Below are positions 2,074 to 54,500 of a DNA stretch of 64,000 bases, in pieces. The translations under genes were made by a program, and so were the position numbers. Source of the stretch: a virus; the IMG/VR virus record IMGVR_UViG_3300017917_000601, positions 1 to 64,000 of that record; one strand, 5' to 3'. The notes beneath the pieces were generated by a model, which had not been told where the DNA came from, searched no databases, and saw only the letters and a program-made list of their open reading frames with translations. Numbering within the stretch: position 1 is the stretch's first letter; the number at the start of each line of letters is the position of its first letter.

Positions 2074-3531
2074 TCAATTGAAAACTCTAACTTTATGTTG
2101 CCGTTCAAATTGTCTTGCATCTGCTAGATCATTTACCATTGGCAGTCCTTTGATGTTCAAACTGGTGTTTAGTAACATAGGACAGCCACTGCGAACTCGC
2201 CATTGTTCCAGTAGATCGTGTAGCTGTGGATTGTCTTCTTTTGATACTACCTGTACGCGACTAGTACCATCTTGATGCACAATACCGGGATATGTATTGG
2301 GTGTTTTACATCTAACTGCGTACTGCATGTATCTATGATCGCCAACTAGATCAAAATATCTGTGAGCTTGTTCTGCTGTGATTACAGGAGCAAATGGTCT
2401 AAAATCTTGGCGCTGTTTAATTTTATTGACGATCTGTTTGATATTGCTACCCCGGGGATCTGCTAATAAACTTCTATTGCCCAACGCTCTAGGACCAAAC
2501 TCAGCAGGGCCACGAGCAACACCACAGATATGATGTTCAAGTAGCCAGTCTACAATCTCAGTGTTTGTGTTTCTATAGCCCATGTCGTAGCCTAGATACG
2601 GACCAGTCCATTCTATATGTTGGTTAGTGTGTGCCAGTACAGCACCAACACTAGACCCAGCATCGCCTGGATTAGGCATAATCCAAACGCTGTCAAAGTA
2701 TTTGTGTGCTAGATGGTTAGCACTACAGTTAAGAGCGCAACCTCCCATCAACACTAGGTTCTTCATGCCTGTTAGTGTTCTAGCACGATCTAGGGCATGT
2801 TCAAACATTGTTTCGTAGATAAACTGTGTTGCGGCTGCCAGATCAAAGTAATCTGATACTGGTATTTCGCCTGAACGCCAATCCATACATCCGCGATGTA
2901 AATTTTTTGTAAATTTAAAGCCTGCAGGATCTTTGACAAAGTATTCCATCATTTCTTGGAAGTATTTGAACTTGTCTCCGTATGCGGACATGCCCATTAG
3001 AATGTATTCATCTTCTAAAGGTTTAAGGCTTAGGCGTTGTGTCATGGCACTATAGAACAGGCCGATGCTATTTGGATACCACTTGCTGTAGACTTTCTTT
3101 AGACGATTGCCTTCAGCAGACCAAATAGTCAGTGTTTCAAATTCGCCAATTGCATCTATAACCAACACTGCGGCTTGATCAAATTTACTGGTAAAATAGC
3201 CTGCTGCCGCATGACTTCTGTGATGCGTAGTCTGTACTACAGGTGCATTGATTTCGTATCTAGCTAGATATATGTCTAGATTGTTATCACGAAGTTTTAG
3301 ACCCTGGCCTGCATATAGTTGTCTAAGTGTTTTTAGTCTAGTGTTTTCGTACCAATAGACCTGTTCAGGCTGACCAAAGTGTTTGGCGTAAGCAACTAGT
3401 TCTCGGCAGAGGTCTCGATCATTCTTTTGCTTGCTGAACCGTTCACTGTGGCTGGCAAACACCAGTTGGTTATCATCGAATACAGCCAGTGCCGCATCGT
3501 GGCTGTTAGCACTAATTCCCCATTTAATCAT
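2074..3531 (-). CDS. O-carbamoyltransferase (NodU/CmcH/TobZ family)
   Basis: HDAA...ERFSKQK, HHRSHAA, GGCALN, PNPGDAG, EFGPRALGNRSLLADP, RPFAP, LNTSLN: full Kae1-like plus YrdC-like motif set. Confidence 0.95.
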   Translation of the reverse strand: MIKWGISANSHDAALAVFDDNQLVFASHSERFSKQKNDRDLCRELVAYAKHFGQPEQVYWYENTRLKTLRQLYAGQGLKLRDNNLDIYLARYEINAPVVQTTHHRSHAAAGYFTSKFDQAAVLVIDAIGEFETLTIWSAEGNRLKKVYSKWYPNSIGLFYSAMTQRLSLKPLEDEYILMGMSAYGDKFKYFQEMMEYFVKDPAGFKFTKNLHRGCMDWRSGEIPVSDYFDLAAATQFIYETMFEHALDRARTLTGMKNLVLMGGCALNCSANHLAHKYFDSVWIMPNPGDAGSSVGAVLAHTNQHIEWTGPYLGYDMGYRNTNTEIVDWLLEHHICGVARGPAEFGPRALGNRSLLADPRGSNIKQIVNKIKQRQDFRPFAPVITAEQAHRYFDLVGDHRYMQYAVRCKTPNTYPGIVHQDGTSRVQVVSKEDNPQLHDLLEQWRVRSGCPMLLNTSLNIKGLPMVNDLADARQFERQHKVRVFN

Positions 3532-3644
3532 TTGTAGATAAAAGGATCCCGTTTGCGTAGCTCTTCTAGTCTTTTTTTAACTAGTCTACGTGTTCGAATA
3601 TAACCAATGGGGTTTTTAATAAAGTTCCAAAGTTTATGTAGCAT
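3528..3644 (-). CDS. 38-aa basic peptide (not in ORF track) MLHKLWNFIKNPIGYIRTRRLVKKRLEELRKRDPFIYK
   Basis: Translated by hand; fills the primase-carbamoyltransferase gap, overlaps the primase stop and shares an ATGA junction with the carbamoyltransferase. Confidence 0.75.
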   Translation of the reverse strand: MLHKLWNFIKNPIGYIRTRRLVKKRLEELRKRDPFIYK

Positions 3645-4638
3645 CTGTTTCCTTAAACCATTTTTTGGCCTTTAACTGTATCTTAAGACTGTTTGACTCT
3701 GTGGCTTCTATGATCATCCATAGTGTAGCCAGTCTCCCTAACTTTCTTACAGCGTCATTGACGTCTTTTACACCGTCTGGCCAGTCTGGCATACTTACCG
3801 ACCAGCCATATTCGATTGCTTGTTCAACTGTTCTTGGACCTTCGTGATCTCTGTCAGGCACAAGTATAATTTCTTTACCTAGTTGTTTTAACAGCCAGTT
3901 TTGACTGTCTTTGATCTCAGCACCAAGTAACGCACATCCATCAATACTTAGCGCATCAAATGGACCTTCACAGACGATCACGAATTTTCGATTATAAGAC
4001 TGTCTGTCTAAGTTAAACACATATCCAGGTTGCTGTTCACTGATGTATTTGGGTTTTGCATCGTTGATAGCTCTAGCGGTGTATCCCACACAGACTCCGT
4101 CTTTATAAAACGGGATTATCACACGATTTTTAAATCCAATCTTATTAGTCCAATAATACGGATAACCGTAAGGATCTAAACTTCTGTTGTTTCTTAGATA
4201 ACAGAAAACATTTATTAGTTCCTGATCTGTGTTTTCCCAACCCTGTAACTCGATCCAAGTGCTCCACTCTTCTAAACTTTTTGCATCCATAGGTAATGCA
4301 CGTTCTTCAAATTTAGGAACTACTTGTCTTACTTGTGTGTTTGAGTTTTCGTTTAGTCTTAGAGCTTCTAGTCTAAGCTGACTGATAATGTCGTCTGGGA
4401 TATTCAGCAAGCGCATGAGCTTGCTCATTTTTTGACTTACAGTCCTACCGGGTTGCCAACTAGCTTTGAATCCACAGTTAAAACAGTGATAAGATAAGGC
4501 TTCGTCGCCGTTTTTAATAAAGCCGCCACGTTGCCTCTTGTCATTACAACAAGGTGCGTTAAAACTTATCCATCCGCTTGGAGTTTGTTTGCGTTTAGCA
4601 GGAAGGTAAGATAAGATTGTGTCTGCTATGAAGCCCAT
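3634..4638 (-). CDS. gp61: DNA primase (Zn-binding plus TOPRIM), T4 gp61-like
   Basis: N-terminal CC...HCFNC, RVIIPF...GYTAR, KY, VCEGPFDA, DRD. Confidence 0.88.
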   Translation of the reverse strand: MGFIADTILSYLPAKRKQTPSGWISFNAPCCNDKRQRGGFIKNGDEALSYHCFNCGFKASWQPGRTVSQKMSKLMRLLNIPDDIISQLRLEALRLNENSNTQVRQVVPKFEERALPMDAKSLEEWSTWIELQGWENTDQELINVFCYLRNNRSLDPYGYPYYWTNKIGFKNRVIIPFYKDGVCVGYTARAINDAKPKYISEQQPGYVFNLDRQSYNRKFVIVCEGPFDALSIDGCALLGAEIKDSQNWLLKQLGKEIILVPDRDHEGPRTVEQAIEYGWSVSMPDWPDGVKDVNDAVRKLGRLATLWMIIEATESNSLKIQLKAKKWFKETDAT

Positions 4639-4643
4639 AGCAT

Positions 4644-4673
4644 ATTATACTTAACTTACAGTGATTTTGTCAA
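4644..4673 (-). promoter_or_regulatory. Consensus sigma70 promoter for the primase operon
   Basis: TTGACA-18 nt-TATAAT, then 5 nt to ATG. Confidence 0.8.
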
Positions 4674-5757
4674 CACTTCCGGTAATATTCTTTCCAGAAA
4701 CAATGTATGTGCCAGTTCCAGAAATTGCTGTGCCAGACCATGATACAGCTGATACTGAGCTTACAGAGTAGCTCGAAGGATAATTGCTAGACTGTCCATC
4801 AACTGCTGTAACTGTAATAATCAAATCATGTGTTACATTGGCTCCGCCAACTTCACTGCCAAACACTTTAATTTGGCTACCAACAGCGTACCCAGTTCCG
4901 CCTGTTCGAACTTTAACATCATAGGATCCGTTATTGTTAGTAACAGTGAACTGAGCACCTACACCATTGGCTTTAGGTGTAGTGTATGCAATTCTAAAAT
5001 ATTTAAAATCACCAACGGGTATATTTGTGTTGGCGTTTACGTCAGGAGTCCAAGTACCAGTAAAGTCTGTAAATGTTTGACTGTCAATAATAGTTGAGCC
5101 CTTCCATGCTTCGGCATTAAGCGTACTTTGTTTAGTAGCTTGTAACCAAATTGATCCAGTAAAGCCGGACATATTAACTGCAAAAGAATGACTAGCTGTA
5201 GGTATTGCTTCGTAATAGGTTACAGGGATAGCACTTGAACGATATGTAGGAATACCAGACAAATCAATTTCAGCTGTAAAGTCTGTAAACTCCCTAGAGC
5301 CACGCACCGTAGGAACGGCATCGCCTACTAGTTCTAAAACGCCAACTGCACCAAATCGTGTGTCAGCATACAGTATTGTGTCAGCACCGTTCTTAAGACA
5401 GGTAACGCTATATTTTAGATATTGTGGGGACAAACTTGCAAGATCGGTATCAGGAATAGTTACTGTTGCTAGGCCTTTGCCTGTAGTTGTTTGATTAGCG
5501 GCAGGTGTAACTGTATAAGGACTGTTTGGGAGTTTTTTGCCACTAGCATCCATAACGTTCATGCGAAGGTTAGTTAATGCGGTGAGGTCGATACGCTTTT
5601 GGTCGGCGTTCTTGATATCGAACTCTATAAGATTATCGATACCTTTATAAATTTTTAAATTTCTCTGATACACGTTAGTAAACTCCACGTTGAAAGTAGC
5701 CACATCTGCTAATAGCTCGATTCTATTTGGATATAAATATTGTGAGATTTTTTGCAT
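4651..5757 (-). CDS. Putative virion structural protein (beta-rich)
   Basis: Thr/Ser/Gly rich; contains the GxGY..G..I...G...GG....D module also seen in the giant tail proteins; CATAAATA upstream. Confidence 0.55.
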   Translation of the reverse strand: MQKISQYLYPNRIELLADVATFNVEFTNVYQRNLKIYKGIDNLIEFDIKNADQKRIDLTALTNLRMNVMDASGKKLPNSPYTVTPAANQTTTGKGLATVTIPDTDLASLSPQYLKYSVTCLKNGADTILYADTRFGAVGVLELVGDAVPTVRGSREFTDFTAEIDLSGIPTYRSSAIPVTYYEAIPTASHSFAVNMSGFTGSIWLQATKQSTLNAEAWKGSTIIDSQTFTDFTGTWTPDVNANTNIPVGDFKYFRIAYTTPKANGVGAQFTVTNNNGSYDVKVRTGGTGYAVGSQIKVFGSEVGGANVTHDLIITVTAVDGQSSNYPSSYSVSSVSAVSWSGTAISGTGTYIVSGKNITGSVDKITVS

Positions 5758-5784
5758 ATTGGCATTTGTCCTTATACTATATTT

Positions 5785-6159
5785 ATGGCAAAATTAAGAG
5801 ATAACATAGAACAGAACCTACCATTTATAAGCGTTTTAAACTACGGCGAGGAAGAGTACGTAGGCATTATTATCAATCAAGACCAGTATGTTACTAGTTT
5901 TTACGATTTGAACGCAATAAAAACTACCGAAGAAAAGACGCTATTCTTAGAAATAGGCGAAACTTGGTGGTGGGAAAGTAATCGTCAGTTTCCTATTAAC
6001 ATTATCTGTAGAGATCAAATACAGCCCTTTGCCTATGCTATTAAAACCTTTAACAGCAAAGATGTGCGTATTATTTTAGGTCCAGTAGTTAACCTTATGA
6101 ACTTAACTATGAAACGAGTTAAACGTAAGAGCGTCCAACTAGTAAGAAAAACTCGTTAA
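5785..6159 (+). CDS. Hypothetical protein (start corrected to MAKLRD)
   Basis: Only ORF occupying this interval; TATACT 6 nt before the ATG and TATAAATA at 5732-5739. Confidence 0.75.
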   Translation: MAKLRDNIEQNLPFISVLNYGEEEYVGIIINQDQYVTSFYDLNAIKTTEEKTLFLEIGETWWWESNRQFPINIICRDQIQPFAYAIKTFNSKDVRIILGPVVNLMNLTMKRVKRKSVQLVRKTR

Positions 6160-6737
6160 TTATACCCGTAGCTAATCTGCTCACAGATTAAATTCATCTG
6201 TACTACAATCACATGTGCATACGCTACCGCATGTGCTTTCTTAAAGTAGTACTCACCGTTCGTCGGCTTCTCCCAAATCGTCTGCCCAATCTCTGTCCAA
6301 GTCTTCCCAACTAGATGTCTCTTTGCTGGGCGGATTAAAGCGAGACACATTGCCAATTCTTCTATAGAACTTGGCTTCATCTGTTTCAATAAGCTCCCAT
6401 GCCCATTTACGTGGAATAGTAAATCCGTGAAATCGTCTTGAAGTAGTAGATCCCATAGTGGTTCCGTATTCATTAGTTGTAGTAGATGCTCTCTACTCTT
6501 TACACCTTCATATACACTTACATTTAAGAAGTCAATCTTAAAATAACCTCTAGCTTCTGCTTCATTATAATCTATTGTACTTAATCCAGTGATAGGATTG
6601 TACGGGATAGAAGTACAATATATGCCGGTATTGTGCTTTTTAAAAGTTCCATTGTCCTCTTTAATAGCCGCAGTGACATGCTCAAAATGTTCGAGTGCCT
6701 TGTTTCTATCAGCAAAGTCAATATCAATATCTGGCAT
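6156..6737 (-). CDS. Miniature DNA polymerase III alpha (DnaE, C-family)-like protein
   Basis: PDIDIDF, KHNTG, GYFKIDFL, LALIRP, YYFKKAHAVAY match the DnaE palm/finger motifs in order. Confidence 0.85.
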   Translation of the reverse strand: MPDIDIDFADRNKALEHFEHVTAAIKEDNGTFKKHNTGIYCTSIPYNPITGLSTIDYNEAEARGYFKIDFLNVSVYEGVKSREHLLQLMNTEPLWDLLLQDDFTDLLFHVNGHGSLLKQMKPSSIEELAMCLALIRPAKRHLVGKTWTEIGQTIWEKPTNGEYYFKKAHAVAYAHVIVVQMNLICEQISYGYN

Positions 6738-6928
6738 TAGTGTTGTGTCCCTGATTCAAATAACATTAACGGAAGTGTTTCGGTAAGATAGTCTGCATAC
6801 TGTTCTGCATGTTCAATGTCATCAAATCCTGTAAATTTTACATAGACTGAGTTATCTTCCTCAACTACAATAACTTGTAGACCTAGTTCTGTTGCATCTG
6901 GGTTGGGGTTTACGTGATTAGGGTTCAT
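6737..6928 (-). CDS. Small acidic hypothetical protein
   Basis: Start/stop overlaps with both neighbours. Confidence 0.65.
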   Translation of the reverse strand: MNPNHVNPNPDATELGLQVIVVEEDNSVYVKFTGFDDIEHAEQYADYLTETLPLMLFESGTQH

Positions 6929-7617
6929 ATGTTTGATTCCTTGACTACTTGCTTGACTAGTTCTACATCAGCTGGCAACTTTTTAAACTTGTTAAGCCAG
7001 TATGGTAGATCCATAATAGTACTTATTGCTTGAAGTTGCTCATCGTTGAATTTCTTCAGCATTTCCTTCCCATTTTTAGAATTTAATAACAGCCAAGGAC
7101 TAATTTTACCATCTTTAACATCAAACACTGCTCTACTAAGACTTACATAAAGGAAGTAATGATTCCACTGTGCTTGGTTGCTTTCTGCCCAAGTCATCAT
7201 ATGCTTAATACTTCTTTCTAATGCTGTTTCGACTCGTTCAGTTTTAACAAGGTCCACAACGTATTTGTCGTACAACTCATCCCTACACCAATGATCAAGT
7301 TTAACACCACTACGAATTACATAGTCAATGAACTTGTCTGGATAGAGGGGATTTACATTACTAACAAAACTACCAAACTTTACAAATGCATTATAGTAAG
7401 GACTTTTTGCAAATTCATCATATGTTTTTTCGCCTTTAAGATTCTGACTTAATTTAAAAAATCTGTTGAAGGCGTCAAATCCTAGTACAACATGTCTTTC
7501 TGTTTTAGCTAAATGTCTGCGTTTCTGTTCGCAAACATGCACCATCAAAGTTTTCTCTTTTGAAAACTTATGCTTACAAAATTGACAAGTAAATACACCT
7601 TCTACCAATGCCATCAT
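6925..7617 (-). CDS. Hypothetical protein with N-terminal C2H2/C2HC-like zinc finger
   Basis: FTCQFCKHKFSKEKTLMVHVC. Confidence 0.7.
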   Translation of the reverse strand: MMALVEGVFTCQFCKHKFSKEKTLMVHVCEQKRRHLAKTERHVVLGFDAFNRFFKLSQNLKGEKTYDEFAKSPYYNAFVKFGSFVSNVNPLYPDKFIDYVIRSGVKLDHWCRDELYDKYVVDLVKTERVETALERSIKHMMTWAESNQAQWNHYFLYVSLSRAVFDVKDGKISPWLLLNSKNGKEMLKKFNDEQLQAISTIMDLPYWLNKFKKLPADVELVKQVVKESNI

Positions 7618-8093
7618 TTTAATTTCTTTGCAATAAGGGAGTCTTCCATACCGTAGCGTTTAGCAAGATCCTTAATGTCTTTGTCAGTTACCATTGAAGC
7701 AAGCAATTCGATCTCATCCATCTTCTTTTGCGGATATAGTTCAGCTAAGAATTTTACTTTTTTACTATCACTGCCTGCTTTTTTCTTGTGACCAATCCAT
7801 TCGTGATAGAATCTAGTATTGCCGTCGTAACTGCACATACACAATAGTAACCACAACAGCTTAGGATGTTTTTGCAAAACATTCCAATGTTTGTTAAAGT
7901 ATTCGTTTACGGTAAGAACAAAATGTTGTTGAACTTCTTTGTTAGAAGACTTGGCATTACTGATATATCTGTTTAGAATAAAAAATTCCTGTTTAAGACT
8001 TTTTTGCTGATCAGCATCCATGGCGTCCCATAGTTCTCGGACGTTCTCATCAACTGCGGCAATCTTTTCTTTTAGTTCTATTTTTTCACTCAT
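7614..8093 (-). CDS. Probable clamp-loader small subunit, T4 gp62-like
   Basis: FILNRYIS...VNEYFN...LLWLLL...FYHEWIGHKKK pattern, size and replication context. Confidence 0.55.
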   Translation of the reverse strand: MSEKIELKEKIAAVDENVRELWDAMDADQQKSLKQEFFILNRYISNAKSSNKEVQQHFVLTVNEYFNKHWNVLQKHPKLLWLLLCMCSYDGNTRFYHEWIGHKKKAGSDSKKVKFLAELYPQKKMDEIELLASMVTDKDIKDLAKRYGMEDSLIAKKLK

Positions 8094-8356
8094 AGTGGCT
8101 TGTCTTTGCTTAAACGATATATCATTATAGCATTATCTAAGGCTTTCTGTAAAGCCTTATTGGTTTTTGCTTCTCTCCGAATTTCGCCCCAAAGTTTGTC
8201 TTCGAGTAAATGATCCCTTAATGGTCTACCGTCAGCAGTTCTAGCATCATAGTTCCAGCCAATCGGTTTCCTTTCAGTTGATCCCTGTTCTCTAGCATAG
8301 ACAACATCATCTACTCGTTCGTAGATGTATGTGGCACCTGGTTTAAGACTTCCCAT
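8090..8356 (-). CDS. Hypothetical protein (probable start MGSLKP)
   Basis: Co-oriented, ATGA overlap with the downstream gene. Confidence 0.7.
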   Translation of the reverse strand: MGSLKPGATYIYERVDDVVYAREQGSTERKPIGWNYDARTADGRPLRDHLLEDKLWGEIRREAKTNKALQKALDNAIMIYRLSKDKPL

Positions 8357-8492
8357 ATACAATCCCGTATTGTTTGTACAGCCATTTTAGAAATTCTTCC
8401 AAAGTTTCTATTTTGTCTTCTTCAAAAATCTGTTCTTTAATATACGAGTCCATACCAATTTTAACTCTGTTGAGAAAATCTTTGTCATTCAT
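8343..8492 (-). CDS. 49-aa hypothetical protein (not in ORF track) MNDKDFLNRVKIGMDSYIKEQIFEEDKIETLEEFLKWLYKQYGIVYGKS
   Basis: Translated by hand; fills the gap, overlaps both neighbours, GGAG upstream. Confidence 0.7.
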   Translation of the reverse strand: MNDKDFLNRVKIGMDSYIKEQIFEEDKIETLEEFLKWLYKQYGIVYGKS

Positions 8493-9120
8493 CTCCGCTC
8501 TCCTTAGGGACTAATCTTGCATCAAACGCCATAATAGTTCTATACCCGTCGCCTCGCCATGGATAAACCGTGTGCGGCAAATGACTTGGAAACAACACTA
8601 CTGTTCCTGCCTTTGGGGTATATTTCCACATGTCATTCATGATAAATTTTGAAATATCTTTAGTTTGTGGTAACCTAAAAGCTATCTGAGAATCTGACGG
8701 AGAACTGTTTTCAACTAGGTCCGGAGTTGTAATATACATATTACCACTTATGTTGCCGCCTGGATGTGTGTGCATTTCTTGGTAATCACCCTGTTGCTGT
8801 CTAATAGTCCATATACTAGTAACCACCGGCTTGCAAAATTTTAATTCTTCAGCGCCTGACTGAGCAGATACTAACTCCATGTATCCTTGACATAGGCTTT
8901 CAAGGAACTTTACTAGCCAAGACACATCAATGTTTAGTTGATTAGGATATACTTGTATCTGCTGTCCTCCTCTAATACTGATGTAAGGATTTCCACTATC
9001 GTTTAATTCTGGATGAGAATGTAGAGAGTCAACTAGGCTATAAATTTTACTAAACTCAACAGGAGGAACATCGTCGATAGCAAGAATAGTTGGTTGAAAG
9101 TAAGCAACTTTTAGACTCAT
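8485..9120 (-). CDS. 2OG-Fe(II) oxygenase-like protein (HxH type)
   Basis: HTHPGGNISGNMY...GTVVLFPSHLPHTVYP...RTIMAFD. Confidence 0.85.
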   Translation of the reverse strand: MSLKVAYFQPTILAIDDVPPVEFSKIYSLVDSLHSHPELNDSGNPYISIRGGQQIQVYPNQLNIDVSWLVKFLESLCQGYMELVSAQSGAEELKFCKPVVTSIWTIRQQQGDYQEMHTHPGGNISGNMYITTPDLVENSSPSDSQIAFRLPQTKDISKFIMNDMWKYTPKAGTVVLFPSHLPHTVYPWRGDGYRTIMAFDARLVPKESGDE

Positions 9121-9623
9121 AGTATTTTATCCAGTTGAATAATTTCGCTTTGTCTCGAGATTTCTTTAACAAAATATGCACAGTTTGGTTTATCACCAAA
9201 CTTTGTAGGAACAGCTAATAGCTGACCGTTTTTCATTTTAGGAAAGTACCACTTAACGTCATTGTAGAAATTTACAATTTCAATTTTCTTAAACTCAACT
9301 CTAAAACTGCTTAATGGATTAAAGATTAATGCTTCAAATCCGCGATCATTTAGACTTGTTAAAGGTAAAATTTCAATATCGTTAGAGCTTGAACTGTCCC
9401 CTACTGCAATTGACCAATCGATAGGCATAGCTACTTCTTCATCGCCGATTCTCAGCACCATTGCAGGGCTGTTGAAACTCTCTAAAAATATCAAAGGCAT
9501 GAAGTAAAAATCTGGCTCTTTAGGGTCACTGTTATCTAAAACTGCAAACCGTGTGCTGTCGTCAACCTCGTCTGGTAAATTGTTTAAACTAAAAGTTTTG
9601 TTATCTAATGTTAGTATTTGCAT
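9117..9623 (-). CDS. Hypothetical beta-rich protein, possible degenerate Hint fold (start MQILTL)
   Basis: AAGGA SD before 9623; motif spacing reminiscent of Hint blocks. Confidence 0.7.
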   Translation of the reverse strand: MQILTLDNKTFSLNNLPDEVDDSTRFAVLDNSDPKEPDFYFMPLIFLESFNSPAMVLRIGDEEVAMPIDWSIAVGDSSSSNDIEILPLTSLNDRGFEALIFNPLSSFRVEFKKIEIVNFYNDVKWYFPKMKNGQLLAVPTKFGDKPNCAYFVKEISRQSEIIQLDKIL

Positions 9624-9631
9624 ATCTGTCC

Positions 9632-11095
9632 TTAGGACCAATCCGTCTTCTCAATTGTGAAGGGATACTTGGCCTCTTTATAAAATTTCTTCCTCTCAGT
9701 GAGGTGGCGTTTGGCGTATTTGCAGGTTGATGTAATATCCCAGATTTGGACGAAGTCTTTGTCTTCTGCTTTTCTAATCCCTCGCCCAATGCTTTGTATA
9801 ACGCGGACAAAGCTCTTTCCGGGCTCAAGAAGAACCAGATTAAAAATCCTTGGAATATTAATACCCACAGCGGCCACACCATAAGTCGCCACAATAATCT
9901 TGTCACTACTGGTTCTAACTTCATCATATTCTTCTTTCCTATCTGTTGTTTTTACTTCGCCTGAAATAAACACACTACCTTCTAATTCATTTACTAAAAA
10001 TTTGCCTGAGTCAATCCTGTTAACGAGAACTAGTGTATTGCCTGATTTTGATATTTCTTTAATTAATTTGCTGATATAGATCATCCTATCATCGTCAGTA
10101 ACTAGATACTTTAATTCGTCAGCATAGCTTCTAAATTCTCGAGTATCAAGCATCTGTACAATGTTTACGTGACAATTTGACAACACACCTTTTTCTTGTA
10201 ACTCGTGTGCTTTAATGCCGCCAATGACTGGACCAATTGAAGCAAAAATACTTTCGCTTTCAAATTTTTCTTTAGGTACTGTTCCAGTTAACCCCCACCG
10301 TATTGCCGCGTTAGATAAGTTTTGTGTAAGTAAATTTTTTAATACTTCAGCCTTAGCCATGTGTACTTCGTCAACAATGACTGTTTTAACACCGTCTAAA
10401 AACTCAGCTAGTGTTAGTATATCGTGCTCGTGATTTTTAGATTTTTTGTCTAAAATATTCAAACTTTGCCAAGTACAGATAGTGTGTGTTTTATTAAGAT
10501 CTTTTCTGTCGCCGTAATAAACCCCGACGTCAAGACCGACGTTAATAAAATCTTCTTCTGTTTGTTCGACAAGTGACTTGTTTGGTACAATAGTGATAGT
10601 GCGTCCATATTTTTCACAAAGATCAGCTAGCGTTGCAGTTGTAATTGTTTTACCTGCGCCAGTGGCAATTTCTTGTAGTGCTTGGTGGTTTTCAAGAAAC
10701 TTATTGATTGCCGCAACTTGGTAATCGCGAAGCATAATAGGCTGGCCTTCTTGAGGATGGCCCTTTGGCCACACCTTACCTTTATCAGCCCAATAGGTTT
10801 CTGTTACTGGAGTAAAGGTAATTTGCTGTGTCGTGCGAAGATCTTCTACTTCTTCAATATCAACACCCATTTTTCCTAGTATATCAAGGATTGTTTCGAG
10901 TTGATTTAAGTATCCATTACCGCCTAGACCAAATAAACTAACCATACCGTCCCATCGTCCTAGCTTGTATGCAGGATGATATCTTGCATATGGTATCTCG
11001 TATTTGAAAGTGTTGGCTAATTTTTTACGAGCATCGAGTGGGCAGTTCTCTAGCTTAATATTAACCTCATCTTTGATGATTAATTTCACCCCCAT
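9632..11095 (-). CDS. uvsW: SF2 DNA helicase, UvsW-like
   Basis: LRDYQ, ATGAGKT, DEVH, GLTGT, GINIP, QSIGRGIR. Confidence 0.92.
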   Translation of the reverse strand: MGVKLIIKDEVNIKLENCPLDARKKLANTFKYEIPYARYHPAYKLGRWDGMVSLFGLGGNGYLNQLETILDILGKMGVDIEEVEDLRTTQQITFTPVTETYWADKGKVWPKGHPQEGQPIMLRDYQVAAINKFLENHQALQEIATGAGKTITTATLADLCEKYGRTITIVPNKSLVEQTEEDFINVGLDVGVYYGDRKDLNKTHTICTWQSLNILDKKSKNHEHDILTLAEFLDGVKTVIVDEVHMAKAEVLKNLLTQNLSNAAIRWGLTGTVPKEKFESESIFASIGPVIGGIKAHELQEKGVLSNCHVNIVQMLDTREFRSYADELKYLVTDDDRMIYISKLIKEISKSGNTLVLVNRIDSGKFLVNELEGSVFISGEVKTTDRKEEYDEVRTSSDKIIVATYGVAAVGINIPRIFNLVLLEPGKSFVRVIQSIGRGIRKAEDKDFVQIWDITSTCKYAKRHLTERKKFYKEAKYPFTIEKTDWS

Positions 11096-12270
11096 TGTGA
11101 CCTCATCTCAATGATCGGTTGTTGGTCAGTGTGAGAAATGATTAGGTCGCAATGATTTGCAAACACCGAAGTCTTGGTATGTCGTAGGGGTGTACCAATG
11201 CTAACAACACTCATTGGTCTCCAGTCATTTTTTATGAAAAATTTTGGAATTTTTCCGTTTTGTACAGCCACTATTTTTGTCTCATTGTTTAGTTCAGCAT
11301 TGTATTTGTTATCTGCAATGAACTTATTAAATTGTGTACCAACCTCGTCATTAGGCAATCTAAAGTAAACTCCAATTTTATCAAAAATTCCATTTTTTTG
11401 GAGACTTACATGAAGATTTTTCATTTCTTCGAGGCATTTTTTATGGTCGTTACTATCAAATACTAACATCACTGGAAGTCTTTTTAATTTTATTAAAGAG
11501 TCGAGGACTTCGTCAAGGCTGTGTTCTTTTCTGTTAATCCAAATTCTTGTATTTTTTCTATAAGCAATTTGTTCTGTTAAATTTTCTGGATTTTTTTCGG
11601 TATTTTCTACAAAATACTGATACCTAATAGATCTGTCTTTAATAATGTTGTTGTCAATGGCAGTGTCAATGCCTAAATCTTGTGTAATTGCTTTTTGAAA
11701 ATTTGTGTGTGAAATGTTTGTGATTAAAAATTGAGATTTGACCTCATTTTCTGACCAAGATTTTATGGTTTTGTAAAAATCTATGATTTTTCCTTCAATT
11801 TCAAAATCTAAAGGTCTTAGCATGTCGACTAGCTTAACAATATTTTTTTCTGTTAGGTCAGCAACATAAAATTTTCCATTTTGTTCTTGCCCAAGTCCAG
11901 AAATATTTTTAGAATTTGAAGTAATTGTTTGACGAATTGCCGAAGAATACGTAAATTCAATAAAAATGACAGAATTTCCACTGGCATGTGAATTGATGTA
12001 CATTTTTCTTGTCTTGTCAACTTGACGAAATGGTTTGGACCAAGTTGGGACTTCTATTGCTTCACAAATTTCATTTGACAGCTCGTTAAATTTTTCAGAA
12101 TTTTCCTTAAAAATCTTAACCAACAGTTTTCCTTGGTTTTCTGTGATAAAGTGTGGAGACGAAATTATCTTATGTAAGCTCTTGAGTACCTTTTTATCGC
12201 GTAAAGATAAAGACAGCTGGTCTACAGGAAAGCTAATTACTTTTACAAGAAGTTTATCAACAGTATTCAT
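11086..12270 (-). CDS. Hypothetical protein (start corrected to MNTVDK)
   Basis: Long AT-rich ORF overlapping the uvsW start; promoter directly upstream. Confidence 0.8.
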   Translation of the reverse strand: MNTVDKLLVKVISFPVDQLSLSLRDKKVLKSLHKIISSPHFITENQGKLLVKIFKENSEKFNELSNEICEAIEVPTWSKPFRQVDKTRKMYINSHASGNSVIFIEFTYSSAIRQTITSNSKNISGLGQEQNGKFYVADLTEKNIVKLVDMLRPLDFEIEGKIIDFYKTIKSWSENEVKSQFLITNISHTNFQKAITQDLGIDTAIDNNIIKDRSIRYQYFVENTEKNPENLTEQIAYRKNTRIWINRKEHSLDEVLDSLIKLKRLPVMLVFDSNDHKKCLEEMKNLHVSLQKNGIFDKIGVYFRLPNDEVGTQFNKFIADNKYNAELNNETKIVAVQNGKIPKFFIKNDWRPMSVVSIGTPLRHTKTSVFANHCDLIISHTDQQPIIEMRSQWG

Positions 12271-45597: not shown

Positions 45598-48500
45598 TTA
45601 TCTTTGTCCAAAATACACTAGTGCGACAGGAGCCCCGTCGATGCCGCCTACAAAGTTCATTCTTGCTGTAACTTTAATTTCACCACCCGTTGTAGTAGTA
45701 ATTGTGTTATTAGCAATATAAATTTGTCCTGATGTAATTGTATTTACGTTTAGTGTACTCTGACCACCACCAATTTGTGCCGCAATATAGCTCTTGATAG
45801 CTTTCTGAGTAGGTATAACGTTATCGCTGTTAGCAGTAAAGTACGGGTCTGTACTAAACTGCGTAATAACCGCTGATCCAACGCCAATTGACACTGCACC
45901 AAGTTGCAATGATTGTAGACCTGCTAGGTTAAACGCACTAGCGTTCAATGTAGCAGTACCAGTTGCCTGCTGAACTCCAAACAAGTTACCAACGTTAAAG
46001 TTACCATCTTGGTCAGTACTTGTGAAGAACACGCGACCGCCAGCTGTAGCTAATTGTTGATTTGCTTGGATTGCAGTAGAAGCATCAACGTTTGGATAGT
46101 TTGTCTGAGTTTGATTACCAGTACCAATGTACAAGAAGTCATGACCAGTTAGTCGAACTTGGCTGTACTTCAATCTAGTAGTAATTACGTCGTCGTGCTC
46201 CGGTGCTAACGATGTTGTTAGGCCTGGGCTAATCTGGAATTGTGCAGTGTAGTTGCCGGCTGTGCCTAATACGTTTGTAACGGCAACTAGTTTATACCAA
46301 GTATTTGGAATACTTGCAAACTGAACGTTTGCACCCGGACTTGGTATAGTGAACAAGTTTGCCATGTTGATAAAGCTAGTATTTTGATAAGTATCAGCGT
46401 ATCCATCACCAGTTAGTGTTGCAGTAGCAGTGGCATTATTAACACCCCTATTACTGAAGCTTGGATTAGCCAATGCGCCATCGCCTGTTCTTACACGAAT
46501 CGGTGCTGTGACTACTTTGTTAGGATCAAACTGTGATACTATTGGGCTAGCTCTATAAACTCCAGATAATCCAGATCCGGTAGTTAGCGGTATAGAAGTA
46601 GAACTTCCAGAAACTGCACTAACTTTAAACGATGTGTTAGCAACAATACTACCAGAAATAATATAGTATGTTGTACCAGTAGCTAGTCCGTAGTCATCTA
46701 ATCCTTCAAAATCAATTGGTTGATTGTTGACTAAATTGGTTGTGTCGGCTACTGTAATTACATCAGTCGCAGAATCTGTAGCAGTTACTATACCCTTAGC
46801 GTACCCAGAACCTGGATCAATAATTCTAAATTCTTGAACTTTACCGCTTAAGGCTCTGATCCTTCCTTGGGTTCTAGCACCAGTTCTAATGCTCGATGCA
46901 ATAGTTCCACTAGTGTTAGAAATAGCAACCCATGTTGGTTGATTTCCAATTGCTGTCAGTAAAGGATTTCCAAATGCTAGAGCTTTCCAGTTAGTAGAAC
47001 TGCCTGGCATTGATTCTTGTTTCCAAGTAACTCCATCTGTACTAGTTGCACAAATGTTTTGACCGCTAGCGATTGCTATAAACAAACCTTGGCCGTACGC
47101 TACTTTAGACCAGTTTGCACTTAATGGCAGGCCGGCTGGTGATAAAATCCATGACACACCTTTGTTTATACTGTATGCAACTCTGCGGCCGCCTGTTTCA
47201 ATTGCAACAAATCTGCCATTTCCGTATGCGACACTCGACCATGTTGTGCTAGCAGGCAAATTACCCCCTGGCGCCCAAGTCACTCCGTTTGCAGATGTCG
47301 ATGTTACAACACCACCAGTTTGAATAGCAACAAATGTTCCGTTACCGTATGTAATGGCGCTGTAATTTCCAGCTGATAAACTAGCAATAGCTGAGGATCT
47401 GTTAATCCAAGTTACACCGTCAGTACTTGATACTGCGGTAGCTGTACCGCTATTTCCGCCCACCGCAACGTAAACACCGTTACCATATGTTATTGACTTT
47501 AGTGTTGTTTGACCTGTTGAGTTTGATGCTGACCATGCTGATCCTAAAGCTGCCACAGTTTGGTAAGAAGAATCAGTCGAACCGTCTGCAACTGCGACAA
47601 ATCTTGCACCAGTGTCAACAATAGTAACAGCAGGAACTGAGCTATATCCAACACCTCTGTTAGTTATAGTATACCCGCTAACACCATTGTTAGTTAGTGT
47701 TGCAGTAGCAGTAGCAAGTGTGCCCACGTAGCCCAACTGTGCACCATATGTTGCGGCTGAACCAATACCGTCAGTGAAGGTTGGGGGTGTAGCTGATAAT
47801 GTTCCAGAAGTAATAGCTACATAATAGTTGGTTTGATCTGGATTTGGTGCTGTATCTAGATAATAGATAAAATCACCAGGGTTAACACTTAACCCGTTGC
47901 CCCATGGGTTTGCACCTGCAACCGGTGGCTCTATAACTACACTAGGAGCACTGTAATAGTCTTGTCCCCAAGTGTTAGCAGTAATTACTGTAACTTGGTT
48001 AGTCTCAGCTGTAATTGAAGGTTGGCTAGTATAACCAGATCCGTTAATTAGCATTGAAACAGTTTGTATAGTTCCGTTTAGTACTGTGCATGTAGCTGTT
48101 GCACCTGTACCGCCGCCGCCCTGGATTTTAATTACAGGAGGAGTACTATATCCAAAGCCGCCGTTTAGGACGTTAATTGCTACAATTTGCGTAGCAGTAG
48201 TTCCAGTTCCAATTACTGCTTCAAATGTTGCACCCACACCACCGCGGCCACCAATAGTAACAGTAGCAGTAGCACCTTGTCCGCCGCCGTAAGTTATGTC
48301 AGACCAGTTTGCACTTGCTGGCAGAGCGCCGCCCGCGGTCCAAGATGTTCCATTAGAGCTGTAAGCTGTTCTAGTACTTGGGCCATTTGCAATAGCAACA
48401 TAATTTCCGTTTGCATACTTTACGGCATTCCACTGTGCGTTTGCTCCGGGCATAGTTCTTGCCGCAGAGTTAAAACCAGGAGCACTATAAGACACTCTAG

Positions 48501-51500
48501 GTTCTATAATATATGCAGTTGTTAAATCTAAATTATTAACAACAGCTCTACCAGGAATAACGTGATCCCATCCAGCTTCATATAAAGAAATAGTTTGTCC
48601 GCTAGTAGCTGTTAACCCAGTAACTGCTGATCCGCCAACTGTAGTTTTTAATGTAAATGTTGTTGCACTGTCAACAGACGCAACATAATAAACTGTGTTT
48701 GCGTTAAAGACTCCTGCTGTTGCGGCACTTAAAAATATTGGTTGATTTACATATAAGGTTGCTGTGCTGGCTACTTGCAATACTGTAGTAGTTGACCCAG
48801 TTACAGTCAATGGTGTAAAGCTGTCTTTGTAAACTTGAGCATCTTTACTACCGTTGTTATATGTTAAGATATTGGCATATTGGCCAACACCTGTACCAGC
48901 AGTAAGTTGAATTCTCATTCCAACATACGCACCGCTTAGTAGCGTATCAGTTGCGGCGATTGTAATATAACCAATTGCGCCGCCCTGTGCTACGTTTGCA
49001 TTTGTTACATAACTTGTACCGCCTTCGCCGTTGCCGTCATTAAGGTCTAAAAGTCTTGTTTCGAATACACCAGCATCTCTGTATTCGTCGCCAATTGCAA
49101 CAGCATTAAAACCAGAACCACTAATGTTATAAGATGCGTTAGAATAGTGTTTACCTGCGTTCCTGAATTCAAATCTGTAGATTTCGTTTTCAGCATCTGT
49201 TACTACGCTAGTAATAAACGCATCGAAGTATCTGTTATCTACAGTACCGTTAATTGGTTCTTCAAACGAATCAACACCTTCAGCGATAACACCGTACACA
49301 CCGTAAGAACTGTTACCGTTTGTAGCACGAATACGTCCACCTAGTTCTGCTAGATAACCAGCATAACCATAGTAGTTAAACACAGAAACAAGTTCTGTTA
49401 ATGAGTTGCTACCTGTACACCATACACCAATACCATCGCTGATAATAGTAGTATAGTCGTTAGCAACCATTGATCGATAGCCGCCTGCATGTAAGGCACC
49501 GTCAATCTTAGCACCAGTACATGCTGTACCAAACATTGTACAGTTTTGTGTATAGCATGAACGACTATCAATCCAAACATTAGAATCGTTAGGTCCAAAG
49601 CCCGGATCAAGTGAAGCGTATGCTCCAGCGGTTGGTCTTCTTGTACCGTAGGCATTTGGAGTTGTCAATGTTCCGGATAGACCAGTCATTGTAATATTTC
49701 TAATACCAGATCCGTTACGAACCAAGAACATGTTTTCGAGTTGAGATCCATCAACTGCGTTTACATATTGAATAACTGCTCTAGTTGACTTGTAGTTACC
49801 TAGGTAGTTTAGGTCATACGCTAGTGCTTTAACGTATGCTTGAGTATCTCTTAAGCACTTAGCTAAATCATACGCATAAGTTACTGTCATTGTACCAGTA
49901 CCGTCTAAGGTGATGTCAACTTCAATCGTTGATCCGCGCTGTGAAACAACAGTAAATGTTGAAGTTGTTGGAACTGTATAGACATAATAAGTCTGGCCAA
50001 TAGTAATTCCGCTACCGGTTATGTTTGTTCCGCTGAATACAATAGGATCGCCAACAGTTAAATTATGAGCAGAGCTTGTTGTAAATCTATTATTAGATGC
50101 TGTTGTACTTGTAACAGTACCACCAAATGTATTAGATACCCATGCTGCCGCTTCTCTAGCAATAAATTCAGAGTTGGCTTTAAGAACTTCTGCTCCTCGA
50201 ATTGTTTCTAGCACATTGTTATAAGAGATAGAACCATGGACTTCTGGAGTATGGTTTGCAGTTACAGACGCTGTCATACTTCCAACAGTGTTGTTGATTA
50301 CAAATGCAGATCCGCTCTTATAATTTTCAGTAATAGTTAGTGCGGTTGAAGTTTCTACTGTGTTAATCCAATATACTTTATTTGATACTAGGCCACCAGC
50401 TTTATTAATAACAGCAGTCATTGATCCTGTATCTGTTGCTAAAGTTACGGCAGTGCCTCCGTTAGTTAGGCTTATAGTTATAGTGCTACTGCTGGCTGTT
50501 TTAACATAATATAACTGGAATGGGATAATATTTCCCATAGTGTTGCCAGTAAAGTAAATTTGCTGTCCTGGAGAAATTCCAAGATTAGACACTGTATCAC
50601 TTAATGTAATTAAGTTGCCAGTAGCGTTTGTAGCACTAGCAGTTGCAGTGGTGTTAGCAGGTAGATTGCTGAATGTAATTGGCATATTAGCAACCATACC
50701 GCTTGTGCTAGTAACTGTTAATCTGTTAGTGCCTGTTGTTACAGAAGTTAGTGTAGTTGTTTTAACACCACGAATTCTAGCAATAATATCGCCAATGGCT
50801 ATCTGTAGTTGTGCTGTTGCGCCAGCGCCTGCGATCATCTTTGCTTTTTGTCCAACGAAGTTTAGAGCACCTAAAGTTGCTGACTTTTGATTATTAACGT
50901 TGTCAACAAGTCGTTGAGCAGATGCGTTTAGTCTATAGTAGGCTCTACCTGCTGATATAGAAGCAAAGTTACTGCCAAACACTAAGTCATCAGCCAATGC
51001 TTCTACAACTAATTGTGCATCTCTGTTTGTTAGACTAGAATCAATAGCTGAGTCTTGGAAGAACTTGTAAACCCATTGCTGTGCATCTGAACCAATTTCT
51101 GCTTTCTTACTTAATAGGAATGTTCTTGAAGCTTGTAAGCTGGAACTTGTGAGTGCAATAGCGGCTGTAGGTTCAATTTTTGCGTTTGCTACACCGTTGT
51201 TAATCCAATCAAGCACATCTTGCACACGGTCTTGAGCAAATGTGCCTGCGCCTGCATTACCAGTCGAACCTGCTGTAACCTGTAGTACAGTGTTACCTGC
51301 TGTTGGTGTAACTGATGTTCCTTGAACAATCTGTCCAATGATAGTTTTTAGTCTGCCAAGAGCCGCTGTAACTGCTTCAAGGTATGAATCTCTAATTTGA
51401 CGGATACCTAAAGAGTAGTAAGCACTGCCGTTTATTAAACTTTGAGTGTTGCCGCCGTAGGTCATATCATACTGTAGGCCGTCAAGCACAAAACTAACAT

Positions 51501-54500
51501 CGCGCACTGTTTCACTTTGATATAAGTCGCCAAATGCTGTCCAGATTGCATTATAGTTTACATTTAGATAAGCTGAAATTTCAGCTTTGATAAATTCATA
51601 GTTTTGTACAATCTGCGCTTTACCGTCACCGTATGTAGATAGGAATGAAGTATTATATCCTGTAACTGTTGGTAGAGCAAATGCTGGTACTCTGCTAGGA
51701 CCATTTGCAATAATATCTCTAATTAAAGAAATATTGTTTACCACTCTATCAGATGCTGTTACGCTTCCAACATTACCAGCTGGCAGTGTTGTAACTTGTG
51801 TAGCTGTATTTCCAACAGTCGGTGTTACAGAAACATTTGAAATAATGTCGGCAATGATAGAGTTAACTCTTCCCATTGCACTTGCTGATTTTTCTTTGTC
51901 TGTAGCTAAGTTAATATTAGCTGGCGCTGGAGAAATAGTAGTCGATCTTAATTCGTCGCCAACAATCGCAGTATTTCTTGGAAGTACTATTGGTAAAACT
52001 TCTGGGAAGCTGCCTGTCTTAACACTAATTGTAGTATTTCCAACAGTTGCCGCAGGAATAAAAGTAGTATTTCCGCCGTTAAGACCTTTAGTTACAATAG
52101 AAACTAAAGAAGTTACTAAACCAGTTGCACCAGTTTCAGCGGTTAATGATACATCAATTAACTGTCCTGCTTGATTTCCTAGTACAACACCATTTAGTGT
52201 TTGGTAGTTTGATGCAGGTGCTGTATTTTCTAATACATTGTTTGATACAGATACAAGATAGTTTAAAGCCGCAACAAATGGAGGAATGTCATATACGTCA
52301 ACACCAGTAACGTAAGACGTGCCTGCTTCGTTAAAGTAAGCTAAAGCGGCCTTAGTAGTATTTAAATTTCCACCGTGACCAATGTCGTAAATGATTGCAT
52401 CTAACACAATGCCAGCGTCTCTCTCAGTTTTAGATTCACTGTAAGAGAATGTTCCAGTATTAGCAGTTGAACTAGCAGTTAAATTCAATGTTGAACCGCT
52501 AGGTGTTGTTGAAATAGTAAATGTTGTATTGCTAACTATTGACTTAACATAGTAAGTTGTTCCAGCAGTGATTCCACCAGCTGATGCACTAAACACAATT
52601 GGCATGTTTGTGTACAAAATATCAGTGCTTGTAACTGTAATTTGATTAGGAATTACTGGATCAGTAGAAGCGGCTGTAGCACTTACAGTAACCTTATATG
52701 TATATTTTACATAGTTATTAACTTCTTTAAGAATAAATTGTTTATTCTTTGATAGTAATTCTTGAGCATTGATATTTCTATAGCCGTGTTCAATAATTTG
52801 GCAAGCATAATTGACGGTCTTCCAAGGCTTGTCCATAGTTGTGCCTTGCCCGTCGACTAGTGTGTCAACCCCGTTTGGAGCAACATATACTAGATTGTTA
52901 ATTTGTCCGTAGTATAACCACTCAGGTGCATTATCTTTAACACGTAAAACTTGGCCATCAGTGCCAATTGGTAGTCTTTGTGGGCCGTTAGCACCGTAGA
53001 AGAACATGTCTCCTTGTGTTGTTAGAACAGCAGATTCTGCACCACTGGCTAATAAGTTCCAATATTGTCCTGTTTGATCTGCATCTGGACGGTTTCCGCT
53101 AGCGGCTACGTGTGCGGCTACGCAGATGTAACTGTTAGCACCAAAGTAAACTGAGTCACCTAGAACATAAGTAACACCAGATTCCCAACTTACCGCATAG
53201 CCAGTATTTGAGACTGTTGTAATTGCAGTTGTGCTAACGCCAGTGACGGTGACTGTTAAGTCGTTTGCTGGACTTAAACCACCTAAGGCTGTTCCTAAGA
53301 TTTTAATCTTATCGTTAAGAGCATAACCAGATCCCTGTGCATTAACAGCAACAGTGTATGAAGTTCCAGTGACTGATACATTAAATGTTGCTGAAGATCC
53401 AGTACCTACTAAGTTTGTACCAGAAACCCCTGTGTAAGTCCTTGTAGAGCCTACCCATCTAATGCCAGAGTTAAGTCTCGACCAATAGGTTGAGAAAGGT
53501 GGTTTAGGATCTGTAGTGCCGGTCATTGTACCAGATGCAGTTGTTAATTCGAATGTTGCACCACCGGGGGCACTGCTGATTGTAAAGTGTGTTGAATCAA
53601 CAATAGTCTTTACATAGTATGTTGTACCCGAAACAATGTTTCCAAATGTAGTTCCTGAGAATACAATTGGTAGATTTGCTGTTAGAACATTAGTGTTGTC
53701 GCTGATTGTTATTTGATTTGGTCTGCTTAGGTCAACACCGACTGTTGTATTAGTTGCTGTTACAGTTTTTACAGAATTGTCAACTAATGCAAGATATGTG
53801 TATCCACCTAATCTTACAACACTACCGATTTTATAAGAAGTTCCGCTGTTCCAATCGCCTTGGAAATCAAAGCCTGTTGTAAAGGGTCTCCAATATGCTG
53901 TTGCAGTTACTGGATTCTGATTTGAATGATTTTGTAGGGCTGTATATGTGTTTCCGCCGTAGGTAACTAGATCACCTAGTTGATATTCTGTCGAGTCACT
54001 CCAGCTATTTTCAAATTCTAAACCGTTAACAAAAATCGAAAACTTTGTTAGATCAATAGATGTTCCTGTTGACTGATGTAGTGTTGTACAAATGTACAAG
54101 TTTGCTCCGAAAGAAACAATATCGTTAACTTTATATCTAACAGATGACCCGCTCCATGGGCCTTTATACTCAATGCCTGCATTAAACACGTCCCACTTAG
54201 CTAGATCAGCTTCAAGTCCGCCTGCTTCAGCAGTAGATGAAGCGTTTGAAATATGTGCAGTATTACAAACGTAGGTATAACCTCCCCAGGTTACAATATC
54301 TCTTACACGATATCTTGTACTAGTTGTCCAACTTCCTCTCCAGAAGGTATTGGCTGCTAGTACGTCCCACTTAGCTAGGTCAGCTTCAAGTCCTAAGAAT
54401 GTAGGACTTACGTTAGTTGCAGATGTGTGGTATTCGTTACATACGTAAACTGTGCCGCCATACACTACAACGTCACCTAAATTATAGGTAGTTGTTGGAG

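Follow-up and report, generated by a model that had tools for sequence, protein, structure and literature searches.

The 193-residue open reading frame and its relatives

The stretch of viral DNA analyzed here (the window; 64,000 nucleotides, positions 1 to 64,000 of IMG/VR record IMGVR_UViG_3300017917_000601) is part of a 76.9-kb contig that was estimated to be 20% complete. On its minus strand, positions 6156..6737 hold an open reading frame (ORF) of 193 amino acids (aa) that starts with ATG and, in both the ORF listing and the sequence, contains zero internal stops. Its product comprises the palm strands with the catalytic triad and the reduced fingers of the alpha subunit of bacterial DNA polymerase III (Pol III alpha), and it is treated below as the C-terminal unit (C-unit) of a minimal Pol III alpha split between two genes. 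Along the protein, the motifs PDIDIDF (residues 2-8), KHNTG (34-38), KIDFL (67-71), LALIRP (132-137), and YYFKKAHAVAYA (163-174) follow one another in the same order as in Pol III alpha. The codons of D3-I-D5-I-D7 (GAT ATT GAT ATT GAC; 6717..6731, this and the following motifs also on the minus strand) encode the metal-binding DxD motif, in which D3 and D5 correspond to D401 and D403 of Escherichia coli. Further along are H35-N-T-G38 (6624..6635), the equivalent of the HxxG palm motif, and K67-I-D69 (AAG ATT GAC; 6531..6539), which is paired with K553-F-D555 in the alignment with KFDFLGL of the E. coli structure 2HNH and contributes D69 as the third catalytic aspartate. Two motifs belong to the fingers, namely R136-P137 of LALIRP (6327..6332), equivalent to the E. 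coli ALFRPG motif that ends at residue 641, and F165-KKAHAVAY-A174 (6216..6245), equivalent to F756-NKSHSAAY-A765.

The protein matched phrog_11778 ('DNA polymerase'; E=4e-71), with residues 3-187 aligned to profile positions 8-194 of 197. When it was queried by tblastn against 50,697 phage genomes, 96 records were retrieved at 44-56% identity over 95-97% of its length, and all those among the matches listed were jumbo myoviruses of the Rak2/121Q/PA5oct/XacN1/Atu_ph07/Phosso group. Clustering of the metagenomic family gave at least 8000 clusters at 90% identity, or 436 when the threshold was 50%, and almost all of these are stand-alone proteins of 185-215 aa that start a few residues from the DxD motif. 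Unlike bacterial Pol III alpha, the window protein scored under the Pfam and NCBIfam cut-offs: DNA_pol3_finger (PF17657) reached 18.1 bits against a cut-off of 22 bits and TIGR00594 reached 20.6 bits against 434, and PF07733 had no match in a Pfam scan at family cut-offs.

A profile made from 85 homologues (30-55% identical to the C-unit) was aligned to E. coli Pol III alpha (2HNH) at E=6e-6, which paired residues 55-140 with E. coli 539-641 (KFDFLGL ... ALFRPG) and residues 151-180 with E. coli 739-769 (YGFNKSHSAAYAL). A second profile, extending across the N-terminal junction, placed the PDxDxD motif of the family on P400-D401-F402-D403-V404-D405. Because of these two alignments, D3, D5, and D69 are taken as the counterparts of D401, D403, and D555, reportedly the catalytic triad of Pol III alpha. 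Exact conservation among the 85 homologues was observed for D3, D5, K67, D69, and P137, and D7, H35, G38, R136, K166, H169, and A174 were conserved in at least 90% of them. The AlphaFold model of the protein (predicted local distance difference test score, pLDDT, 96.7; predicted template modelling score, pTM, 0.89) was compared with the PDB by Foldseek, and the top 18 matches were all C-family polymerases, including Pol III alpha of Thermus aquaticus (Taq), Mycobacterium tuberculosis, and E. coli, and also PolC, with a probability of 1.00 to the Pol III alpha structures. A preliminary description of this DNA had proposed both the motif set and an intact catalytic triad, and the PHROG match, the 2HNH profile alignment, and the exclusively C-family structural matches place these well beyond chance.

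Among 80 related IMG/VR loci, the gene was intact in 79 (186-195 aa), and the median ratio of nonsynonymous to synonymous substitution rates (dN/dS) was 0.13, ranging from 0.04 to 0.25 over 425 pairs drawn from 80 close relatives. The intact frames and the low ratio point to a functional protein without signs of decay, and a pseudogene was ruled out on these grounds.

Large parts of a bacterial Pol III alpha are nevertheless missing from this protein, as the preliminary description had pointed out for the PHP domain, the thumb, most of the fingers, and the clamp-binding and OB regions. Its first residues are those of the DxD motif, and the PHP, helix-hairpin-helix (HhH)/beta-binding, and OB parts are absent. 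In the model, strands 21-26 and 32-40 are linked by a turn of 5-6 residues instead of the thumb, a domain that in E. coli is said to span ~80 aa. The turn KEDNGT (residues 26-31; 6645..6662, minus strand) lies between two palm strands and appears to mark the thumb site of bacterial Pol III alpha, judging from its flanking motifs, which align to E. coli ~407-419 and to the HxxG strand. In the profile alignment, ~95 fingers residues (E. coli ~642-738) are shrunk to ~10, and the alignment stops at E. coli ~770 with nothing further that aligns. Also lacking are the GRGS (GS) loop and the helices preceding it. In every enzyme of the Pol-beta fold, these elements grip the triphosphate of the incoming nucleotide.

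A second gene and natural fusions

A search of the complete Phosso genome (469 kb) with PF07733 revealed a second small gene, annotated 'DnaE-like', whose product of 177 aa has the C-terminus ...VWGVGRGSSVASYVLFLIGIHRVNSITYELDFDEFLN-stop. The corresponding proteins of IMG/VR relatives, hereafter N-units, are 166-170 aa long, end in ...GVGRGSSVASYVLYLIGVHKID..KYNLDW.EFLR, and carry the GRGS triphosphate-binding loop (...GVGRGSS...EFLR) within a match to PF07733 profile positions ~12-95. An N-unit was present in four of the five longest IMG/VR relatives, at 159-184 kb from their C-unit. By tblastn it was detected in 101 phage records of the same genera as the C-unit records, and at least 14 accessions were common to both sets of listed matches. 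The distance between the two genes is 31 kb in 121Q, ~44 kb in PA5oct and Paride, ~180 kb in Atu_ph07, and 224 kb in Phosso. In metagenomes, the N-unit family equals that of the C-unit in size, again with at least 8000 clusters when grouped at 90% identity.

The two proteins abut on the Pol III alpha chain. The PF07733 match of the N-unit ends at profile position 94-95, on its final residues, and the C-unit matches the same profile weakly from position ~95-101. In E. coli numbering, the N-unit end ...EFLR/N equals ...ERFLN393 and the C-unit start MPD equals M399-P400-D401, with ~5 E. coli residues unaccounted for at this break, which separates the GS loop from the DxD strand. The preliminary description had stated that the 193-aa protein is not a simple split-gene half; this view did not survive, given that the C-unit starts where the N-unit stops, that both occur in the same phages, and that the two are found joined in three natural proteins.

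These fusions were recovered from metagenomes. An exhaustive HMMER search yielded a 375-aa protein of which residues 190-371 match the C-unit and residues 14-180 align end to end with an N-unit at 37% identity, and a search seeded with this fusion added two more proteins of 376 aa (78-81% identity) from other assemblies. In all three (P0210, P0391, and P0392; 375-376 aa), N-unit, ~9 aa, and C-unit form a single chain, and the PF07733 match is continuous across the junction (profile positions 12-121). When 99 C-units were placed in a tree, the fusions grouped as one clade of three (Shimodaira-Hasegawa-like approximate likelihood ratio test, SH-aLRT, 99), and under midpoint rooting this clade was nested among split forms, in a group with an SH-aLRT of 91. 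Fusion is therefore probably a secondary, derived state under this rooting, the root itself not being established.

A structural model of the fused protein was obtained from an alignment with few C-units, since MAFFT alignments with many C-units misplaced the N-units on the C-half and were discarded. The model (pLDDT 86.9, pTM 0.84) is uncertain only in the first ~80 residues and in the linker. The best 19 Foldseek matches were all C-family polymerases (E down to 2e-9), and VIA-align gave Z=21.6 for M. tuberculosis DnaE1, ~20 for Taq Pol III alpha, and ~15 for E. coli, the next unrelated match having Z=3.7. The superposition spans 330-357 residues on Pol III alphas, with 3.7 Å over 330 residues against the Taq ternary complex 3E0D, and covers the Pol III alpha palm and partial fingers as far as E. 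coli residue ~773. The first ~75 residues of the N-unit (L084, L085, L086, L087, L002) lie outside the PF07733 match, are variable, and have low confidence in the fused model (pLDDT 50-80). This region might be a remnant of the PHP domain, as the structural alignment of the model to DnaE begins at chain residue 9-14, where the PHP domain starts.

Profile searches for further DnaE pieces covered four long IMG/VR contigs (G001-G004) and the complete Phosso genome. Neither PHP (PF02811) nor HHH_6 (PF14579) was found in these five relatives, and the finger model PF17657 matched nothing there beyond the C-unit itself. On the contig of the window, PF07733, PF00136, and PF02811 had no match, a result that is uninformative at ~20% completeness. 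Because no further DnaE parts occur in the relatives, the enzyme is minimal, amounting to ~360 aa in two chains. The complementary fragment that, according to the preliminary description, would make up a conventional split DnaE thus does exist elsewhere in the genome, and yet the sum falls far short of a conventional DnaE. A family B polymerase (PolB; ~890-1013 aa), which had likewise been suggested as a target of search, was identified in G002, G003, G004, and Phosso, that is in four of the five relatives, and none was found on the ~20% complete contig of the window. The minimal C-family enzyme accompanies a T4-like replicase.

A probable two-chain enzyme and its alternatives

We consider it likely, with good confidence, that the product of the ORF is one subunit, the C-terminal one, of a minimal C-family nucleotidyltransferase that consists of two chains and is typical of group 2.2 or Rak2-like jumbo phages. 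The N and C chains would associate non-covalently, free of inteins, and rebuild one Pol-beta-like active site; the natural fusions are good indirect evidence that two separate chains make up one palm, as the predicted structure also suggests. The pair may catalyze template-directed nucleotide addition without a thumb, a proofreading PHP/exonuclease, or clamp contact, and because it lacks these it would be distributive. It could assist the family B replicase of the phage, and its conserved placement beside primase and helicase suggests that it extends primers, fills gaps, or takes part in repair at the fork. Among cellular systems, the DnaE of Firmicutes is a second C-family polymerase that works beside PolC and extends RNA primers. 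By analogy, the phage pair may represent a second, non-proofreading polymerase beside a main replicase, likewise encoded near primase and helicase genes, with the differences that the main replicase of the phages is of family B and that their auxiliary has no clamp-binding part.

Both the family and its split have been known since 2021, and the window holds one more member. In the passages that Iyer, Anantharaman, Krishnan, Burroughs, and Aravind (2021; Viruses 13:63, PMC7824862) devote to it, a split minimal Pol III alpha of group 2.2 jumbo phages was found computationally, and it is described there as accompanying PolB, with which it may cooperate in strand synthesis or repair; those same passages make no mention of fusions. 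In genome papers, one of the halves appears under the label 'DNA polymerase III alpha', and beyond such an annotation neither the PA5oct omics paper nor the Sharanji paper contains data on these genes. A full-text literature search returned no later work on split mini-Pol III. Compared with the described members (PHROG 11778; Phosso XYS97594.1, 121Q gp16, PA5oct gp264), the window protein is 44-56% identical over the full length, has the same size, starts at the DxD motif, and lies in the same synteny (zinc-finger protein, C-unit, convergent small gene, structural protein, primase, DnaB). There is no essential difference, except that the relatives have a separate N-unit and a PolB, of which the window fragment shows neither, and that the window copy, which comes from an uncultured phage, is preceded by a non-conserved 63-aa ORF. 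With bacterial Pol III alpha (DnaE; 2HNH/5FKV, Taq 3E0D, M. tuberculosis 5LEW) and PolC it shares the palm triad, the HxxG and K-x-D strands, and the RP and FxKSHxxAYA motifs. It is much shorter, with 193 aa, or ~360 together with its partner, where they exceed 1100; it lacks the beta-clamp motif, HhH, OB, PHP, and thumb, and its chain is cut after the GS loop, ahead of the DxD strand. Beyond the 2021 description, our analysis adds the residue-exact junction (E. coli N393 to M399), the fusion clade, and a conserved zinc-finger neighbor. A Pol III alpha core of ~360 residues whose chain is interrupted after the GS loop and before the metal-binding strand amounts to a natural experiment on the minimum of a C-family polymerase, in an abundant family whose C-unit is under strong purifying selection and whose relatives also carry a full PolB replicase. 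The fusions could be expressed as one chain, and these three details may be useful to experimental work.

Several points weigh against the two-chain reading. Evidence for the association of the N and C chains is indirect, coming from the exact junction, the co-occurrence, the natural fusions, and the predicted fused structure, and the full-text literature searched contained no biochemical or genetic experiment on any family member. No N-unit was found on the 76.9-kb contig of the window, so that its presence in this particular phage is extrapolated from relatives and presumed for the remaining ~80% of the genome; this absence is expected on a 77-kb piece if the two genes are ~160-185 kb apart, as in the nearest long relatives. 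PolB had no match in G001, which is 83% complete. A thumbless pair that has also lost ~95 fingers residues may not grip a primer-template, and the suggestion that its activity would be templated comes solely from the conserved finger motifs of the sequence.

The main rival explanation accepts the heterodimer of N and C chains as an active nucleotidyltransferase of the Pol-beta fold, with the difference that it would work without a template, adding untemplated tails, making a nucleotide signal or second messenger, or transferring nucleotides to another substrate. It would account for the missing thumb, clamp-binding part, and OB domain and for the shortened fingers in phages that already own a PolB replicase, and after the C-family polymerases the fused model resembles only template-independent enzymes such as Cid1, MenT, and CutA, at Z ~3. 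We regard it as rather improbable, however, as the RP and FKKSHAxAYA finger motifs are specific to the C family and nearly invariant, the superposition of the fused model continues beyond the nucleotidyltransferase core up to E. coli ~773, and the gene is located within a primase-helicase-UvsW replication module. The preliminary description had instead favored a minimal DnaE-like polymerase that stands alone or is perhaps completed in trans, not by another DnaE fragment, but by the products of two upstream genes: a 63-aa acidic ORF (6737..6928, minus strand), whose stop overlaps the C-unit start (TAATG), and a 230-aa protein (6925..7617, minus strand; phrog_11058, E=7e-62) with an N-terminal CxxC...HxC zinc-finger-like motif. 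Part of that proposal stands, in that the protein is a reduced relative of Pol III alpha with conserved aspartates, all three of which are in the C-unit chain. The enzyme is not self-contained, however, since the GS loop and the preceding helices are supplied by a dedicated gene of the same phages that abuts the C-unit residue for residue, and the natural fusions join exactly these two units. As to the proposed helpers, the neighboring genes do overlap start to stop, but the 63-aa ORF is a positional neighbor that tblastn detected in only 23 of the 80 close loci; at its position there is a dissimilar 71-aa ORF in Phosso, no ORF in PA5oct, and a 109-aa virion protein in 121Q. The zinc-finger protein, for its part, is a conserved neighbor, present in 79 of the 80 loci, 34% identical to PA5oct gp265 (which is directly upstream of the PA5oct C-unit), and located upstream of the C-unit, either adjacent to it or separated by one small ORF, in Phosso-like, PA5oct-like, and 121Q-like phages. 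It matched no DnaE model in Pfam or NCBIfam, and nothing ties it to the missing GS loop. A stand-alone polymerase completed by these proteins is accordingly very unlikely.

Even less credible is a conventional DnaE that has been split and is rejoined by a split intein, or a gene that was broken by a mobile element and is decaying. DnaE is the classic intein-split gene. In cyanobacteria, DnaE-N and DnaE-C are encoded by two distant genes and joined by trans-splicing, and the phage genes resemble them in forming a C-family polymerase from two halves that lie far apart. The phage split is at another site, however, and its product is minimal, ~360 aa in sum without PHP, HHH_6, or an extra finger piece in the genomes searched. 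There is no space for intein halves, because the N-unit end EFLR directly precedes the C-unit MPD in E. coli numbering (it stops 5 residues short of MPD), and the DxD motif stands at the very start of the C-unit. Across thousands of clusters, each gene has remained intact under purifying selection. Since they have no intein halves, the phage chains must work as a non-covalent pair.

Within the two-chain reading, a more specific proposal is that the pair is the smallest template-directed C-family DNA polymerase known, with ~360 aa in two chains and without thumb, exonuclease, or clamp contact, positioned at the fork and, for example, extending primers before handing them off to the family B enzyme. 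The zinc-finger neighbor might then replace the DNA grip of the thumb. We put this forward only tentatively and would sooner expect it to fail than to hold. The zinc-finger protein remains a candidate accessory factor, for which Pfam, NCBIfam, and a PDB sequence search gave no functional lead and Protein Atlas only unnamed viral clusters.

Genome neighborhood

The C-unit gene is embedded in a conserved gene order, namely UvsW ... the 159-aa protein, the 230-aa zinc-finger protein, a small ORF, the C-unit, a convergent gene of ~125 aa, a virion protein, primase, (carbamoyltransferase), and DnaB. This synteny is common to Phosso, PA5oct, 121Q, and the 80 related IMG/VR loci. The 159-aa ORF (7614..8093, minus strand; phrog_11758) is the first gene of the overlapping run 159-230-63-193. 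Upstream of it lies a sigma-70-like site, TTTACA-18-TATAAT (8153-8124, minus strand). Although it is only a match to the consensus, this site hints at a run of four genes of which the C-unit is the last. On the plus strand, a convergent 124-aa gene (5785..6159; phrog_11637), whose start ATG at 5785 follows the Atlas record, overlaps the C-unit stop with its own stop by 4 nucleotides. It was found in 76 of the 80 loci at a median identity of 86%, compared with 74% for the C-unit, which is thus less conserved, and the convergent arrangement is repeated in Phosso, PA5oct, and 121Q. Protein Atlas yielded nothing for this protein.

Downstream of the C-unit, the replication module includes primase (3634-4638) and a DnaB-like helicase (621-2054), both on the minus strand and both in synteny with the C-unit. 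A virion structural protein gene (4651-5757, minus strand) is located inside the module, between the C-unit region and primase. Its placement is the same in Phosso, PA5oct, and 121Q, and according to the PA5oct record the protein was detected in virions by electrospray ionization tandem mass spectrometry (ESI-MS/MS). Between primase and DnaB, the window carries a carbamoyltransferase-like ORF of 485 aa (2074-3531, minus strand), which has the same position in 54 of the 80 loci. Phosso, PA5oct, and 121Q lack it there, and their DnaB gene comes directly after primase. Upstream, in the same direction as the C-unit, lies a UvsW-like helicase (9632..11095, minus strand) that was present in 69 of the 80 loci and is also annotated as UvsW-like in 121Q. 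It is adjoined by a 174-aa protein (9117-9641, minus strand; phrog_11279) with a median identity of 86% in 75 of the 80 loci. A megablast of window positions 4000-12000 against the phage collection gave no match. The T4-like core of the window comprises DnaB, primase, UvsW, UvsX, a gp32-like single-stranded DNA-binding protein, terminase, and tail tube. Two giant ORFs on the minus strand (45598-54717 and 54755-61888) lie side by side in the window and encode 3039 and 2377 aa.

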